The notes below the pieces were generated by a model. It did no database searches and had not been told where the DNA came from. It saw only the letters and a program-made list of their open reading frames with translations. Positions 17,676 to 44,826 of a stretch of 64,000 nt of DNA are shown one piece after another. Origin of the DNA: Escherichia virus TH43. Made by a program: the position numbers and the translations under genes. Numbering within the stretch: position 1 is the first letter of the stretch; the number at the start of each line of letters is the position of its first letter. The stretch lies in sequence record MT446414.1; one strand, written 5' to 3'.

Positions 17676-18167
17676 TTAGTATTTACCTGTGGTGTATAGG
17701 TCTGCTTCTGCAACCCTTCGGTTGTGAAGTCCCGGACTCTGTTGTTTTACACCTCTGACTGTTATTTTATCCCAACGGAGGAATTCAGAATAAACATCAC
17801 CCTTCACATCTCCGTTAATAACTTTCCTAAGTTTAGAAGTTGATAAAGCCCCACCACCAACGTTGAAATTGAAAGAGGTGAGAGCATCAAACTCGTGGGT
17901 TAACAAAGGAACCCTAATATTTTTCTGAGTAGCACGAACAGAGTCTTGTGTGTCTCTATCTAGCAGAGCTAGACAATCCTCTATAGAATACGTTAATCCC
18001 TGTCTAACTGGATACCCATTCATATCGCGCGTAGCCCCAACACATATCGTCCAGATACCTGCGGAATCTCGGTAAGCACGAGTTCTCATACCTTCATGCT
18101 TCATGATGAATTCCATCCCTTCTGGGCTTAAGCTCAGTTGTATCGGTGGCAATGCGACATTATCCAT
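17676..18167 (-). CDS. lysozyme (glycoside hydrolase family 24-like endolysin)
   Basis: HEGMRTRAYRDSAGIWTICVGAT matches the catalytic E ... D ... T region of T4-type lysozymes. Confidence 0.75.
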   Translation of the reverse strand: MDNVALPPIQLSLSPEGMEFIMKHEGMRTRAYRDSAGIWTICVGATRDMNGYPVRQGLTYSIEDCLALLDRDTQDSVRATQKNIRVPLLTHEFDALTSFNFNVGGGALSTSKLRKVINGDVKGDVYSEFLRWDKITVRGVKQQSPGLHNRRVAEADLYTTGKY

Positions 18168-24360: not shown

Positions 24361-25479
24361 TTAAGCACCAGATTTAACGGTGTAGGTTTTGAACACTGTA
24401 GAACCTGGGTCAGTTCTCAGGGTTACTTTAGTATCTTCACTAGTGATAGCACCAGAGAGCGTAATTGTTAAAGCATCACCAGAAATGGTAATACTCAATT
24501 TGTCTGCATCTGTGCCTTCTACATCATATACGATAGTTCCTAGTGGAGCACCTTGAGGAACAGAAGCTATGTTAAAAACTCCTGGTTGGCTTGGGTCTGA
24601 GATTGTCAAAGTATCACCAGCTACTGACCCATCAGACACTGCTGAAACAACTAAACCAGTAAGTTTAGGTATTACGTCTTCTATGGTAGAAGTTGCAGTT
24701 ACTGAAGTCTGGGTTTTATGAGTAGCCTTAACAGTTACATTGTCATTCGCTGTATCTGACAAGGTTAACAAGCCAGAGGTAGCATTAACAGAACCGGCAG
24801 CAGTAGGGGTTACTACAAAATTATAGTCACTAGCAGCTGAGCGTTGAACAGTAAACATATCTGTAAAAGCGACACTGTCTCCACCAGATTTTCCAGTAAT
24901 AGCAGCTTTAGCCGCGATAGTTGGAGGCTGAGGGTTGACAACAACGTTAATCACTTTAGTGACAGAAGGTTTAGTAGAAGATTTAACTGTAAGAGTAGTA
25001 CTACCTGCTGCAACAGCAGTTACACGACCAGCAGTTGTTACCGTAGCCTTAGTCGGATCTGCAATTTCCCAAGTAACACCTTGAGGTGCACCAGCAGGAG
25101 ATACAGAAGCAGTCAGATTGGTAGCATCTGGAACAGTTATGGTAAGAGTATCACCAGTTAGACCACCACCAGTTACAGCAATGGAAGCTGGGTCAGGGAT
25201 TGGAGCTTTAATTTCCGAGATAACGGCAGTACCTGATACATCTTTAAGAGTAGCAGTCACTGTAATATCAGCGGTTTGAGGCGAACCCGGAGCAGTGAAC
25301 AGTCCAGAAACAGAAATGGCCCCACCACCGGCTACTGACCAATCGAAGCCTGTAGTAGATGTGGAGCCATCGCTTAGTTCTGCTTCAGCTGTAAACTGTT
25401 GGGTAGCCCCGGTCAGCAGACTAGCCACTGACGCGGGACTAACAGTTACGCTGTCAACTGTTACGCCCCCGCCTTTCCC
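24361..25479 (-). CDS. Ig-like domain ORF, predicted C-terminal extension of the major capsid protein via -1 frameshift
   Basis: Thr/Ser/Val-rich Ig-like repeats; frame overlaps the capsid gene 3' end by 90 nt; no ATG or Shine-Dalgarno near its 5' end; slippery heptamer sits in the overlap. Confidence 0.55.
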   Translation of the reverse strand, partial: GKGGGVTVDSVTVSPASVASLLTGATQQFTAEAELSDGSTSTTGFDWSVAGGGAISVSGLFTAPGSPQTADITVTATLKDVSGTAVISEIKAPIPDPASIAVTGGGLTGDTLTITVPDATNLTASVSPAGAPQGVTWEIADPTKATVTTAGRVTAVAAGSTTLTVKSSTKPSVTKVINVVVNPQPPTIAAKAAITGKSGGDSVAFTDMFTVQRSAASDYNFVVTPTAAGSVNATSGLLTLSDTANDNVTVKATHKTQTSVTATSTIEDVIPKLTGLVVSAVSDGSVAGDTLTISDPSQPGVFNIASVPQGAPLGTIVYDVEGTDADKLSITISGDALTITLSGAITSEDTKVTLRTDPGSTVFKTYTVKSGA

Positions 25480-26519
25480 GCAGCGGTGAACAGTACACCA
25501 GAAGCATACGGGTTGCGGTGACGCAGACCAACTTCCATTTCGATCATCCACTTCTCGTAAGAACCATCTTTAGCCAGTTCAGTACGCTTCGGAGCACGAA
25601 GGACCATCTGAGTCCAGTCAGAGCTGCGGAAGAAGTAAACTGCATCAGTAGGCATCCAACGGTTAACGATGATTTTATAGCTCTGACCCAGCGGGTCGGT
25701 GATGCTGTTAACTTCGTAGATGAATTGTTTAGTGTTCTCAAAGATACGCTGACGAGAACCAACAGAGTTTTCCTGCAGCTTAGCAAAAATGCTAGCGTGA
25801 GCAGGGTTAATCATGATGATATCAGCTTCAGAACCTGCGGTATACAGCTGAAGAGTCATATCAAAGATATCTGCTTCATCAAAGCCTACGTTAGTGGTAG
25901 GGTTAGATGCGTTCTGTGCAACTTTAACAGTTACTGCACCGGTATCCGGGTCAGCAGGGCCGTTCTTAGTCTTATCAACAACGCTACCAGACAGACCACC
26001 ATGAGCACACAGGAACTGGAAAGCACCAGTCTTACGAGCTGCATGAGTATCATTCAGACCAGCCAGAGCAGGATCAGCTGCTGAGTTAGTCAGATACTGG
26101 TCAGCCAGAACGTCGGTACGAGCCTGACCGGACAGCAAGATTTTCTCGAGATCACGTTTAATCTCTTTACCTTTCTTCTCCAGCTGATACATCAGTTCAC
26201 GACCACGACCGTAGTTAGCGGTGGTGTTAGCAGTATCAGAAACACGAACTACTTTACGCAGGATCTGAGTTACGTTAGATTTGATAACAGTCGGTTGCAT
26301 TTCACCGTCATCAGCGCGAGAGCCTTCAACGTGTGCGTTGTTAGCATCAACACTTGCCAGTGCATCGGTCTGCCAGCTGAAAATAGTCTGGTTGATAGAC
26401 TCTTTACCAGTCATAGACACAAACGGAGTATCTTGCGGAGAGAGGACAGAAATCCAGTTAGCAAAAGAAAGTTTTTTACCGTTCTGGTCGTAAGATACAA
26501 ATAAAGTTGGATTTGCCAT
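25461..26519 (-). CDS. major capsid protein
   Basis: 352-aa protein directly downstream of the acidic scaffold gene; GGAG upstream of ATG; order terminase-portal-scaffold-capsid. Confidence 0.65.
   Translation of the reverse strand: MANPTLFVSYDQNGKKLSFANWISVLSPQDTPFVSMTGKESINQTIFSWQTDALASVDANNAHVEGSRADDGEMQPTVIKSNVTQILRKVVRVSDTANTTANYGRGRELMYQLEKKGKEIKRDLEKILLSGQARTDVLADQYLTNSAADPALAGLNDTHAARKTGAFQFLCAHGGLSGSVVDKTKNGPADPDTGAVTVKVAQNASNPTTNVGFDEADIFDMTLQLYTAGSEADIIMINPAHASIFAKLQENSVGSRQRIFENTKQFIYEVNSITDPLGQSYKIIVNRWMPTDAVYFFRSSDWTQMVLRAPKRTELAKDGSYEKWMIEMEVGLRHRNPYASGVLFTAAGKAGA
25473..25479 (-). other. candidate -1 programmed ribosomal frameshift site G_GGA_AAG
   Basis: X_XXY_YYZ heptamer in the capsid frame 4 codons before its stop; the -1 frame continues GKGGGVTVD into the Ig-like ORF; nested hairpin immediately downstream (25432-25472). 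Confidence 0.55.
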
Positions 26520-39968: not shown

Positions 39969-40038
39969 GTTATTTGGTTAAGCCTTGCTATGTGGTAAGG
40001 CTTGCACGATATAATTTATCAGCGAAAGGAATAAAGCA

Positions 40039-40482
40039 ATGGCTAAATCTAAAATCAGCATGAAAGGCGGGCGTGTGTTCTCGATGAGTGAACTGGAAAA
40101 AGATAAGCCAGTCGCCACTAACCACGTTAGCAAACGTAGCCTTAAACGTAGAGCTATCAAACAAGCCGCTCAAGAACATAAACCGTCTACCGTAGCAAAG
40201 GTGTTAGGGCGTCGTGTTCACCGTGCTGATGCGCTTCTTCTTGCTGATCATAAGCGTTCCTTGTTAACCAACGGTGCAGCGAAAACAGAAGAAGAGAAAC
40301 GTTTAGAAATCTTCTGTAATGGTCGCACTAAGGGTAAGCAAAAGAATAAAGGTAGCACTAAGCCACCGAAAGCTTTCCCTACTACCAGCCAATGTGCACC
40401 TGATGTTTTCTACGCTGACAGTCAGCATAAATGGGGAGTCGAAAAATACATCGACCCCATCAAGGAAGCGAGAGTGAAGTAA
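40039..40482 (+). CDS. basic, probably nucleic-acid-binding protein, 147 aa
   Basis: Lys/Arg-rich; AAAGGA upstream of ATG. Confidence 0.45.
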   Translation: MAKSKISMKGGRVFSMSELEKDKPVATNHVSKRSLKRRAIKQAAQEHKPSTVAKVLGRRVHRADALLLADHKRSLLTNGAAKTEEEKRLEIFCNGRTKGKQKNKGSTKPPKAFPTTSQCAPDVFYADSQHKWGVEKYIDPIKEARVK

Positions 40483-40514
40483 GCCTCTTCTCTGTACCAG
40501 TAGTCAACTACTAT

Positions 40515-40540
40515 GACGCTCTTCTTGAGCGTCTTTGTGT
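40515..40540 (+). terminator. intrinsic terminator 1 of a cluster
   Basis: GACGCTC ttctt GAGCGTC followed by TTTGTGT. Confidence 0.5.
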
Positions 40541-40542
40541 CT

Positions 40543-40564
40543 GCCGCCTTTGTGCGGCTTTTTG
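40543..40564 (+). terminator. intrinsic terminator 2 of a cluster
   Basis: GCCGC ctttgt GCGGC followed by TTTTTG. Confidence 0.5.
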
Positions 40565-40713
40565 CGTAGCTAGTGATGCCTAAAGGGAAAGCCCTTTGTG
40601 AATCATTGGCATGGTTCAATCCCTATTGGATGGTCATTTGACCGGGCCTTTAACGAGGCCGCTTTTTTAAGAGTCTTTACGAGGATTCTTAAATGAGTGA
40701 GGTCATGTTCACT

Positions 40714-40741
40714 CTTTCAGGTCGCCCCGTCTTCGGATGGG
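40714..40741 (+). terminator. intrinsic terminator 3 (strongest)
   Basis: GCCCC gtcttcggat GGGGC followed by TTTTTTAT. Confidence 0.65.
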
Positions 40742-40801
40742 GCTTTTTTATGCCCGTAAAACAGGAGGTAGTAAGTTCTGATAACGACAGCCCAGCTACT
40801 T

Positions 40802-41188
40802 TTGACATTGACTATTTATTATGAGGCAGGGAATCAGCCAACCGCTTGCAAAGCATTAGTAGCGGATACCGTAATAAACAGAATGTCACAACGAAAACTG
40901 ACTGCCGAGCAGGTTATAAACCAACGAAACCAGTTCGAGTGGATACCCGTCTTATTAAAGAAGGAGAAACCTTTCAAACGTTATGTAAAGCTAATTCGTG
41001 ATGATAACCCTCTGACGAAGAAGTCAATCAGGGAGAGCGAGCAGCTTGCAAGACGTGCACTGAAGAAAAGTTATGTGCCTTTGTATAGCGGTACATACTT
41101 TCAGAGTAAGAGCGAAGGGGTGCCAAAGTGGTATACCAATCCAATGTATTGTGGTGATTTAGTGTTCAATAATAGTGCCCGTGACTGA
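40802..41188 (+). CDS. putative SleB-like cell-wall hydrolase domain protein
   Basis: LTIYYEAGNQ ... LVADTVINR ... NQFEW resembles the Hydrolase_2 signature as recalled; strong AGGAGGT at 40762-40768 implies a non-AUG start upstream of the track TTG start. Confidence 0.4.
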   Translation: MTLTIYYEAGNQPTACKALVADTVINRMSQRKLTAEQVINQRNQFEWIPVLLKKEKPFKRYVKLIRDDNPLTKKSIRESEQLARRALKKSYVPLYSGTYFQSKSEGVPKWYTNPMYCGDLVFNNSARD

Positions 41189-41389
41189 TTCATAGGTGCC
41201 AAGATTGACAAACTAAATTCCCTTATAAATCACCTACTTATGATTTTCTCTGCAAAAAGTGGTAGTGATTCGGAACCAGAGGTAATGACTGTATATAGAC
41301 CTCTGAAAATTATTGATAGAAATTAAGTTTAGAAATAATAAATTCTAAATAATATTTCTTATAATATCTTACTTTAAGAGGATAAAGAT

Positions 41390-41695
41390 ATGACTTTAGA
41401 GGTTTATAAGCTCCTTCTCGTACTCACTGTAACGATTTCTACTCTAGGATTTATTGCTTTAAGTAATAAGTCAGCAAGCTGGAAGCGTCGTTATGAGTTC
41501 CTTCTTAAGCAAGAGGAAGTCTTTAATGCTGATATTCGTTCCAAGTTGGTCAAGATGCAGGAGCAAATTGAAGCACGTAATGATCGTTTGGCTTCTTTGG
41601 GTTGGGAGATTAAGCGTATTCAAGATCTCAATAAGCAACTCACTGAAGAAATTAAACGCCAGAATGAGGAAACAGAGGATGCGCTCAAGGGTTAA
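41390..41695 (+). CDS. membrane-anchored coiled-coil protein, 101 aa
   Basis: N-terminal transmembrane segment LLLVLTVTISTLGFIAL then charged coiled coil; AGAGGA upstream. Confidence 0.45.
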   Translation: MTLEVYKLLLVLTVTISTLGFIALSNKSASWKRRYEFLLKQEEVFNADIRSKLVKMQEQIEARNDRLASLGWEIKRIQDLNKQLTEEIKRQNEETEDALKG

Positions 41696-41855
41696 GTTCA
41701 CCACTGGTCACACTGTTCGCCTTGTTGGCGGTACTCAAACAGGTGTTATTCGTCGGAGAACAACGATTGATGGTGTTCTCTGTTATCTTGTTCAGTGGAA
41801 TGGTGAATCCTCTCCTTCCTTCGAACGTCGTACTGATTTGGTGTTAATCAAATGA
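41664..41855 (+). CDS. small SH3/KOW-like protein
   Basis: HTVRLVGGTQTGVIRRRT ... YLVQWNG pattern; start uncertain (ATG 41664 or 41679). Confidence 0.35.
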   Translation: MRKQRMRSRVKFTTGHTVRLVGGTQTGVIRRRTTIDGVLCYLVQWNGESSPSFERRTDLVLIK

Positions 41856-44337: not shown

Positions 44338-44760
44338 TTGAAGATAGAGTTAGAATACCCCTTCGTTAATGACTGGCGATTGGGCTACTTAAGAACAAGC
44401 AGAGACGGTAGGAAGCGTGTTGATTTGTATAATACCGACACGGAGAGGACAACCATTTCTTACGCAAGATATTTAATGTCTTGTCACATAGGCAGGTACC
44501 TAACTGAAGACGAGGAGGTTGATCATATTGACAGAAATAAAACTAATGATGACATATCTAATCTTCAGATACTTTCCATAGAAAATCACAGAAAGAAGTC
44601 AACATTAGAAGCAACTACTGGAAGAACAATGATTTCAGTTGTTTGCTCTTATTGTGGAAGATCTTTTGAAAAAGAAAAGCGAAATGTTAAATATGCAAAT
44701 TCTTTTTGTAACAGATCATGTGCAGGTAAGTATAACGGTTTCAAATCTATCGGGGCGTAG
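44338..44760 (+). CDS. HNH homing endonuclease
   Basis: EVDHIDRNKTNDDISNLQILSIENHRKK is a classic HNH core, plus C-terminal CxxC ... C...C; TTG start with GGAGGGG upstream. Confidence 0.65.
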   Translation: MKIELEYPFVNDWRLGYLRTSRDGRKRVDLYNTDTERTTISYARYLMSCHIGRYLTEDEEVDHIDRNKTNDDISNLQILSIENHRKKSTLEATTGRTMISVVCSYCGRSFEKEKRNVKYANSFCNRSCAGKYNGFKSIGA

Positions 44761-44826
44761 TCTAGTGGAACAGGCAGCGAGCTTCTAACTCGCCTTACGA
44801 GGGTTCGAATCCTTCCGTCCCGACCA
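44751..44826 (+). tRNA. tRNA-Arg (anticodon UCU)
   Basis: Manual cloverleaf: acceptor CGGGGCG/CGTCCCG, D-arm GTCT-AGTGGAAC-AGGC, anticodon arm GCGAG-CTTCTAA-CTCGC, T-arm GAGGG-TTCGAAT-CCTTC, discriminator A, encoded CCA; 76 nt. Confidence 0.8.

Follow-up and report, generated by a model that had tools for sequence, protein, structure and literature searches.

The Escherichia coli genes hda and yfjD start at CTG, and mutation of the TTG formerly annotated as the yfjD start, at codon 9, has no effect (PMC3531124). In rep of IncFIB, a CTG and a good ribosome-binding site (RBS) set low expression, and the gene is widely misannotated at a downstream GTG (PMC11983097). Such starts are rare, with a survey counting CTG in 20 of ~85,000 annotated genes (as cited in PMC11983097). 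Here, we describe a candidate for this class in Escherichia virus TH43 (MT446414.1), in a 64,000-nucleotide (nt) stretch referred to as the window. Taken together, the comparative data suggest that positions 40778-41188 contain a functional gene of 136 codons for a SleB-type hydrolase, and that its translation probably begins at CTG 40778, set by the Shine-Dalgarno (SD) motif AGGAGGT located 8-9 nt 5' of this codon, and not at TTG 40802.

The phage gene shares several properties with hda, yfjD, and IncFIB rep: a good SD, a CTG at normal spacing from it, and conservation of the upstream codons as coding sequence. The first canonical start lies downstream in a similar way, being a TTG at codon 9 in yfjD, a GTG 14 codons on in IncFIB rep, and a TTG at codon 9 in the phage gene. 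In this class and in the phage gene alike, databases annotate the downstream start, and the presumed purpose is low expression. There are also differences. The starts of hda, yfjD, and IncFIB rep were verified by N-terminal sequencing or start-codon mutagenesis, whereas the phage CTG is a start proposed from sequence comparison. Conversely, the phage CTG is fixed across a subfamily clade (~100 genomes), and the ancestral TTG or ATG is visible in sister lineages.

The plus strand of the locus reads ...GCCCCGTCTTCGGATGGGGCTTTTTTATGCCCGTAAAAC AGGAGGT AG TAA GTT CTG ATA ACG ACA GCC CAG CTA CTT TTG ACA TTG ACT ATT TAT TAT GAG GCA GGG AAT CAG.... The SD occupies positions 40763-40769 of the window sequence; an earlier note on this DNA had recognized the motif but placed it one nucleotide too far 5', at 40762-40768. 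The hydrolase frame proceeds through TAG (40769), TAA (40772), GTT (40775), CTG (40778), ATA (40781), ACG ACA GCC CAG CTA CTT, TTG (40802), ACA, and TTG (40808), and terminates at TGA (41186-41188). As the earlier note had observed, GTT, CTG, and ATA follow the SD in frame with no canonical start at this location: in the sequence and its translation, the hydrolase frame contains no ATG, GTG, or TTG between the TAG TAA stops and 40802. The first canonical start is indeed TTG 40802, although it begins 33 nt, and not 34 nt, past the final base of the SD. Measured from the GGAGG core (40764-40768), the spacing is 6 nt for GTT 40775, 9 nt for CTG 40778, and 12 nt for ATA 40781. Because TAG and TAA close the frame just upstream, translation of the codons that precede TTG 40802 must begin at one of these three. 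Two of them, CTG and ATA, are AUG near-cognates, unlike GTT. The elements of the gene are as follows.

40763..40769, plus strand: Shine-Dalgarno AGGAGGT, seen in the sequence; GGAGGT or GGGGGT in every relative examined, with the same SD ahead of a canonical start in outgroups.
40769..40774, plus strand: paired in-frame stops TAG TAA, which shut the hydrolase frame directly 5' of GTT/CTG (sequence and translation).
40778..40780, plus strand: proposed non-canonical start CTG, aligned codon-for-codon with the starts of orthologues, of which four are TTG and one is ATG; it does not vary among 27 clade members and is annotated as the start in Bas87/88/89.
40778..40801, plus strand: putative N-terminal extension of eight codons, (M)ITTAQLL, absent from the 128-amino-acid (aa) open reading frame (ORF) call; marked by synonymous-only variation, homology to MLTTAALL-type N-termini, and a place in the first half of modelled helix 4-17.
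40802..40804, plus strand: TTG, the first canonical start-type codon, not preceded by an SD; codon 9 of the frame, a conserved internal Leu that is TTG in four of five outgroup lineages and CTG in the fifth.
40778..41188, plus strand: proposed full coding sequence, 136 aa plus TGA, for a SleB/CwlJ-type (Hydrolase_2) cell-wall hydrolase homologous to phiEco32 phi32_117.
40823..40825, plus strand: GAG, encoding Glu16 of IYYEAGNQ, which closes helix 1 and is presumed to be catalytic (invariant in the protein alignment; AlphaFold2 model).
40835..41140, plus strand: match to Pfam PF07486 Hydrolase_2, profile positions 2-85 of 100 (profile hidden Markov model, HMM).

The position of the start is indicated by diverged orthologues. 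A protein search returned six relatives: P0010-P0012, P0014, and P0015, of 135-136 aa each and with 56-70% identity, and P0016, a protein of the 129-aa Kuravirus type that is truncated to 113 aa. The five diverged orthologue lineages are 56-71% identical to the window protein and are 135-136 aa long, not 128-129. Gene order on their contigs matches that of the window: a 148-aa gene, a long terminator-bearing gap, the hydrolase gene, small genes, TerB, and KilA-N. In these outgroups the start lies 3-4 nt past GGAGGT and is a TTG in four lineages (L098, L100, L102, L104) and an ATG in the fifth (L105). The outgroup codons TTG CTT ACG ACA GCA GCC TTA CTT TTG ACA TTG ACT ATT stand opposite CTG ATA ACG ACA GCC CAG CTA CTT TTG ACA TTG ACT ATT in the window. 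At the protein level, M-L-T-T-A-A-L-L-L-T-L-T-I-Y-H-E aligns with L-I-T-T-A-Q-L-L-L-T-L-T-I-Y-Y-E read from CTG 40778. This codon-for-codon alignment with the outgroup TTG and ATG starts identifies CTG 40778 as the ancestral start position. The alignment also suggests that CTG, rather than ATA, is the codon used, since CTG aligns with the orthologue start codon and ATA 40781 does not, falling opposite orthologue codon 2, a Leu. TTG 40802 and TTG 40808 are conserved internal Leu codons in these upstream-starting orthologues, with TTG 40808 kept in all five. In a more distant family (35-38% identity), the short N-terminus MD(I/M)TQALFWLTLTIYHEARGE begins one codon 5' of the CTG-equivalent position. 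A scan of IMG/VR yielded few close relatives; the more remote hits begin with long signal or anchor regions and are uninformative on the start.

The second line of evidence is the pattern of substitution across the gene and its extension. GTTCTGATAAC is invariant in all 27 independent intact relatives examined, and the CTG and ATA codons are each invariant across the clade members. The 136-codon frame from CTG is intact in 27 of 28 clade sequences. Synonymous (dS) and nonsynonymous (dN) divergence was estimated by the Nei-Gojobori method over codons 9-136. Comparison of the window with Kuravirus gives a dS of ~1.0-1.2 and a dN/dS of 0.06-0.07, and comparison with Bas89, where neither sequence carries the Kuravirus ATG described below, gives a dS of 0.92 and a dN/dS of 0.046. 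These values indicate that the hydrolase gene is functional and under strong purifying selection. Within the extension, codons 2-7 vary at four of six third positions and at none of 12 first or second positions (Fisher's exact P ~0.005), and all of the variable sites (ACG/ACA, ACA/ACG, GCC/GCA, CTA/CTG) are synonymous. At the gene-wide dS, the probability of observing no change at 12.7 nonsynonymous sites is ~4e-5 to 8e-5. In the alternative frame across the extension (the phi32_118 ORF), the same substitutions are all nonsynonymous, and this frame is probably not coding.

A few sequences depart from the intact frame. In myPSH1131 (L089, MG983840.1; locus ~645-690), which lies outside the 28-sequence set, an unrelated 32-nt sequence, AGTTACGCACGCACGGATTTAAAACGCCCATT, stands in place of the segment that encodes QLMLTLTIYYEAGN with its catalytic-motif Glu, and the reading frame is disrupted; either this one phage has lost the gene naturally or the assembly is at fault. 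The contig MAVG01000004.1 (L114) has two single-base deletions late in the gene, at columns 312 and 347 of its alignment with L113, and the 113-aa P0016 has a frameshifted C-terminus. The defects in L114 and P0016 are isolated decay or assembly errors in a family that is otherwise intact.

The 5' part of the gene also has two stretches of low synonymous variation, 40799-40822 and 40868-40912. The codons CTT TTG ACA TTG ACT ATT are identical in four of five outgroup lineages, at 65-71% protein identity. The first stretch, 40799-40822, contains a tandem TTGAC(A/T) repeat that includes a perfect -35 hexamer TTGACA, with no matching -10 at 16-18 nt. A scan for sigma-70 promoters in or near TTGACATTGACT and in the intergenic gap found none.

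The region 5' of the SD is organized differently from the gene itself. Within the 280-nt gap at 40483-40762 are four plus-strand terminator-like hairpins, at 40515, 40543, 40645, and 40724, the last being the one before the SD.

40724..40749, plus strand: intrinsic-terminator-like hairpin, GCCCCGTCTTCGGATGGGGC plus a T-run, 13 nt 5' of the SD; a terminator is annotated here in relatives.

Terminator-like sites number five in 40000-41800, where 1.5 are expected. Outgroup orthologue loci have gaps of 270-660 nt with comparable arrays, as in L098, where six were found against 0.4 expected. A search for Rfam RNA families across 40300-41500 gave nothing near the gathering score, and no tRNA remnant was found in the 40483-40762 gap. 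When the leaders of 22 GenBank or IMG/VR relatives were aligned, with seven metagenomic relatives then added, the sequence from the SD onward, GG(A/G)GGTA(G/T)(T/C)AAGTTCTGATAAC(G/A)AC(A/G)GC(C/A)CAGCT(A/G)..., was nearly invariant. Directly 5' of the SD there are at least four unrelated sequences, comprising two terminator variants, GAGGGTGTTTATTGAAACAACAAAAC, ATACATGAAAGGTGTTTTATCCTGAG, and GGCCCCCACAATTGGGGGCCTATAAACAAA. Because homology among the lineages starts at the SD, this mosaic junction makes the SD the first element of the gene module.

Taken alone, the AGGAGGT motif is near chance and is rejected as evidence by itself: the window has 13 copies where 7.4 +/- 2.4 are expected, two of 100 shuffles reach 13, and most copies are intragenic. 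The copy at 40763 is meaningful because it is intergenic, lies directly after a terminator, retains the SD type in all relatives, and corresponds to an outgroup SD that precedes a canonical start.

Small ORFs are annotated through the terminator in several genomes, overlapping the hydrolase start in another frame; these include Bas88_0109 and Bas88_0110 (L002 481-665) and phi32_118, and are probably spurious calls. The window counterpart, an ATG ORF at 40693-40824 on the plus strand (= phi32_118, L136 292-423; Bas88_0109), was considered and rejected as a gene, as it crosses the terminator hairpin, shows nonsynonymous changes only, and has an unconserved upstream part. Translational coupling or frameshifting from an upstream ORF was rejected as well; there are CTGA and TGATA overlaps with a third-frame stop, and these lack a conserved upstream ORF.

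The predicted protein provides a structural context for the extension. The SleB-type similarity that the earlier note had read from a motif is borne out by the Hydrolase_2 HMM search, in which PF07486 scores 31.6 bits against a gathering threshold of 27 (E = 2.6e-7). A precomputed PF07486 match is also present on relatives, and PHROG 938 'endolysin' is matched with E = 2.9e-7. Glu16 of IYYEAGNQ, which we take to be the catalytic Glu of SleB/CwlJ, is invariant in the protein alignment, and distant homologues have the canonical EARGE form, IYHEARGE. An AlphaFold2 model built from a shallow eight-sequence alignment (mean predicted local distance difference test, pLDDT, 75.5; predicted template modelling score 0.74) contains a helix at residues 4-17, with pLDDT of 81-84 for residues 1-20, and places Glu16 at the end of this helix. 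In the model, the first helix, with the catalytic-motif glutamate at its end, is complete only with the eight extra residues. A start at TTG 40802 would remove about half of helix 4-17, since residues 1-8 would be deleted.

With Foldseek, the only meaningful PDB match is the SleB catalytic domain 4FET (chain B), with a probability of 1.00 but otherwise weak values (E = 0.02, template modelling scores 0.49/0.53, root-mean-square deviation 5.6 Å). A profile search of PDB sequences returned only noise and no SleB. The likeness to SleB/CwlJ (PF07486; PDB 4FET) includes an above-threshold HMM match and a conserved Glu that ends the first helix in an E-A-x-G-x motif. Unlike SleB/CwlJ, the phage protein is a single 136-aa domain without a peptidoglycan-binding domain or a signal peptide, and carries EAGNQ, not EARGE. 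The substrate of SleB is the muramic-delta-lactam of the spore cortex; in contrast, the phage host is Gram-negative and has no spore cortex, and the 4FET fold match is weak.

Neither a signal peptide nor a cell-wall-binding domain was found in the 136-aa protein; many distant phage homologues have N-terminal anchors. The N-terminus, (M)ITTAQLLLTLTIYY, is uncharged and Leu/Thr-rich, with only ~15 residues before Glu16 as against ~20 for the weakly hydrophobic transmembrane segment of a signal-arrest-release (SAR) endolysin, and the model assigns it to the globular domain as helix 1. The Hydrolase_2-type proteins annotated as endolysins in Cronobacter phage A24 and phage phiEcoM-GJ1 are distant relatives, 34-40% identical over part of the length, with E from 6e-8 to marginal; unlike these, the TH43 gene lies outside the lysis cassette and coexists with a separate lysozyme-like endolysin beside the holin. 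The protein is a putative peptidoglycan hydrolase. It could serve as an accessory lytic enzyme released by the holin or have another cell-wall function.

Several considerations weigh against a CTG start. CUG is a very weak start codon. ATA 40781 is near-cognate and invariant too, and GTT is also formally possible. Most gene callers and GenBank records pick starts other than CTG. The extension is short, with six informative codons, and its statistics rest on four variable sites. In addition, codons 8-15 and 31-45 are poor in synonymous variation even in outgroups; because of this local depression, the local neutral rate may be below the gene-wide dS, and a nucleotide-level constraint other than coding may be embedded in the 5' part of the gene.

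The last consideration concerns Kuravirus, in which an ATG occupies codon 8, at the position of CTT 40799 (loci L003, L005-L007, L087-L094, L109-L114). The window and all outgroups have CTT or ATT here, indicating that CTT at codon 8 is ancestral and that the Kuravirus ATG is derived, by two substitutions. This ATG lies seven codons 3' of CTG and has no SD. It could be a compensatory second start or a mere Leu-to-Met replacement. Against the CTG start, its gain could reflect selection for a canonical downstream start, at least in Kuravirus.

Database annotation of the gene is inconsistent, with the following starts in GenBank.

Bas87, Bas88, Bas89: start CTG, 136 aa, given without comment.
Paul, phiEco32, XT18, ShigP1, LAMP, and others: start at the Kuravirus-only ATG at the position of CTT 40799, 129 aa.
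4E8: start TTG, 128 aa.
O18-011: start further downstream, 110 aa.
SU7, EP335, myPSH1131: start at an internal ATG, 101 aa.

In the curated record of Paul, the neighbouring genes each carry an RBS feature, but the hydrolase gene has none. A search of the literature on phiEco32, Gordonclarkvirinae, and CUG starts in phages found neither a paper on the start of this gene nor experimental results for the gene.

The first alternative is that translation begins at TTG 40802 (or TTG 40808) without help from the SD, giving a protein of 126-128 aa and and the SD and the 24 nt after CTG would then be either a relic that is not translated or a stretch of RNA or DNA kept for some other reason. In its favour, TTG 40802 has no canonical rival as the first start, several GenBank records such as that of 4E8 annotate it, and it directly adjoins the Kuravirus ATG; moreover, the nucleotides of both TTG codons are retained even in outgroups, and the low local synonymous variation could reflect a non-coding constraint. 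In the outgroups with a canonical upstream start, however, both TTGs are plainly internal Leu codons, and the extension is homologous to translated orthologue N-termini. A TTG start, itself lacking an SD, leaves unexplained both the conserved SD and the three-periodic, synonymous-only changes in the extension of a clade with dS ~1, and it would cut predicted helix 4-17. The yfjD analogy also argues against it, as there a TTG at codon 9 downstream of a CTG start is irrelevant to expression (PMC3531124). Initiation at TTG is accordingly judged unlikely.

A second alternative accepts that the extension is translated and places its start at ATA 40781 (AUA) or GTT 40775. AUA is a near-cognate with an efficiency about that of CUG (bioRxiv 10.1101/063800) and is invariant in the clade, while the position of GTT, 6 nt after GGAGG, is the most typical of the three, and the ATG of the distant MDITQ family stands opposite it in the alignment. 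Each codon also has points against it. In the five closest outgroup lineages the start aligns with CTG, with ATA opposite their codon 2 (Leu), and the 12 nt between GGAGG and ATA are borderline for a usable spacing. GUU, with two mismatches to AUG, falls in a class that initiates at 0.01-1% (bioRxiv 10.1101/063800). Use of ATA or GTT in place of CTG is therefore rather improbable.

A further possibility is dual initiation, in which ribosomes would start weakly at CTG 40778 and also at TTG 40802 (the ATG in Kuravirus), making a long and a short isoform with different first helices. Kuravirus gained its codon-8 ATG by two substitutions and yet kept the SD, the CTG, and an intact extension, and the nucleotide-level conservation of the TTG codons is unusual. 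The downstream start lacks an SD, however, and the Leu-to-Met change in Kuravirus is conservative and needs no special explanation. In the predicted structure the short isoform would miss half of helix 1, and its folding is unsupported. The present data fit dual initiation and a single start alike, and a second start is considered doubtful.

A more elaborate scenario can also be imagined, although it is a long shot. The start may have weakened stepwise, from ATG in the most distant lineages through TTG in the sisters to CTG here, making synthesis of this early-region hydrolase dependent, in the infected cell, on initiation fidelity (the activity of initiation factor 3, IF3). Together with the downstream TTG or Kuravirus ATG, this would give two isoforms with distinct versions of the hydrophobic first helix, forming a dual-start switch like that of holin/antiholin, for a non-lytic cell-wall function such as entry-site remodelling or superinfection exclusion.

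T4 genes 38 and 25 have split ribosome-binding sites, and the phage gene likewise has a strong SD more than 20 nt from the first canonical start. By analogy, a hairpin between the SD and TTG 40802 (or the Kuravirus ATG) might restore the distance. The minimum-free-energy fold does pair GGAGGUAGU with GCUACUUUU, and UAGC and GCUA flank the spacer in some Kuraviruses. Unlike in T4, there is no stable or conserved bridging hairpin, and the intervening sequence behaves as coding. Folds of four lineages are no better than shuffled sequence (z = 0.37, -0.10, 1.01), they differ among lineages, and a Paul-type sequence lacks such a stem. In the predicted fold the SD is sequestered, not exposed; the G/T and T/C differences immediately 3' of it lack compensating changes, and there is no covariation; and the codon-periodic conservation would be left unexplained. 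A split site is thus very unlikely.

Scarcely credible is a sequencing error, as the earlier note had allowed, or a decaying start-less pseudogene. In favour of these readings, the sequence could formally arise if one extra nucleotide entered an ancestral TTG (TT[C]TG), the motif segment is replaced in myPSH1131, and one metagenomic contig has two 1-nt deletions. An error is nevertheless excluded by the identical sequence in 27 relatives that many laboratories sequenced independently, and the region has matches in 98 GenBank phage records. The 136-codon ORF is intact in all but one of the 28 clade sequences, and a dN/dS of ~0.05 at a dS of ~1 excludes a pseudogene.

Initiation at CTG 40778 remains the reading favoured here. 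The earlier note had proposed initiation at a rare codon, CTG or ATA, which fits the comparative data best and is now narrowed to CTG 40778 by the orthologue start alignment and the coding-type substitutions. The proposed history would begin with a canonical start at this position, which is TTG in most sister lineages and ATG in a single one. Substitution of T by C, or insertion of 1 nt into TTG, would have turned it into CTG in the ancestor shared by the E. coli/Shigella Gordonclarkvirinae; the spacer would have lengthened, and this state would have been maintained since. SD-bound 30S subunits would then initiate with fMet-tRNA on CUG at roughly 1-2% to a few percent of the AUG level. The hydrolase transcript would also have to read through the terminator cluster, and the outcome would be little 136-aa enzyme.

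CUG, AUA, AUC, and AUU in E. coli initiate at ~1-2% of AUG (0.02-3% in other constructs), and codons that are not near-cognates at 0.01-1% (bioRxiv 10.1101/063800). Low expression of the hydrolase is plausible because CUG reaches only ~1-2% of AUG, most outgroups use the weak TTG, and terminators lie upstream. The outgroup use of TTG fits a long-standing preference for low expression. Toxicity of the hydrolase as the reason for a weak start is speculation, and cytoplasmic toxicity is not obvious given that the protein has no signal peptide.

The region around the gene is 94-97% identical to the corresponding region of the Gordonclarkvirinae (phiEco32-like) E. coli podophages Bas88, TH42, EK010, SU7, and ECBP2, and ~80% identical to that of Kuravirus members such as Paul and phiEco32. 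The hydrolase gene is a homologue of phiEco32 phi32_117, annotated there as 'hypothetical protein', and is surrounded by small genes of unknown function. The gene cluster that contains it is classed as early in phiEco32 (PMC8948821). The window encodes an endolysin at 17676-18167 on the minus strand (phrog_7, E = 8e-46), and in phage Paul a lysozyme-like endolysin is encoded beside the holin in the late region, away from the spanins. Identity of the SleB-like gene as the lysis-cassette endolysin was considered and rejected, given its location among early-class genes and the separate holin/endolysin cassette.

Three further features of the window were noted. A 101-aa ORF at 41390-41695 (plus strand) matches PHROG 12154 'DNA helicase', a name that Bas88 copies; the label looks like annotation drift, because 101 aa is far too small. 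The sole tRNA gene of the window, tRNA-Arg(TCT), lies at 44751-44826 (plus strand) in the early or middle region. On the late-gene strand, two overlapping ORFs, 25461-26519 and 24361-25551 (minus strand; span 24361-26519), are candidates located where relatives encode the major capsid protein; the capsid gene of Paul, phiEco32, and SU10 has a programmed frameshift extension at GGGAAAG (PMC4281155).

The analysis would correct the gene model of a conserved gene of ~100 E. coli/Shigella phages, many of them therapy candidates. GenBank holds at least five lengths for this protein (136, 129, 128, 110, and 101 aa), and most entries would be too short. For work with the protein, a construct that begins at the annotated ATG or TTG would lack half of the predicted helix in which the catalytic-motif glutamate lies. 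More generally, a strong SD without a canonical start, combined with orthologue alignment and codon-periodic conservation, may recover starts that standard gene callers miss. The novelty lies in the setting, a phage gene with a clade-fixed CTG and a visible canonical ancestor, and not in a new mechanism; Bas87-89 already carry the CTG start. The locus would add a phylogenetically well-supported, fixed CUG start to a class with a handful of verified bacterial examples, and, with the canonical ancestor visible in sister lineages, would make the weakening of a start codon traceable through evolution.

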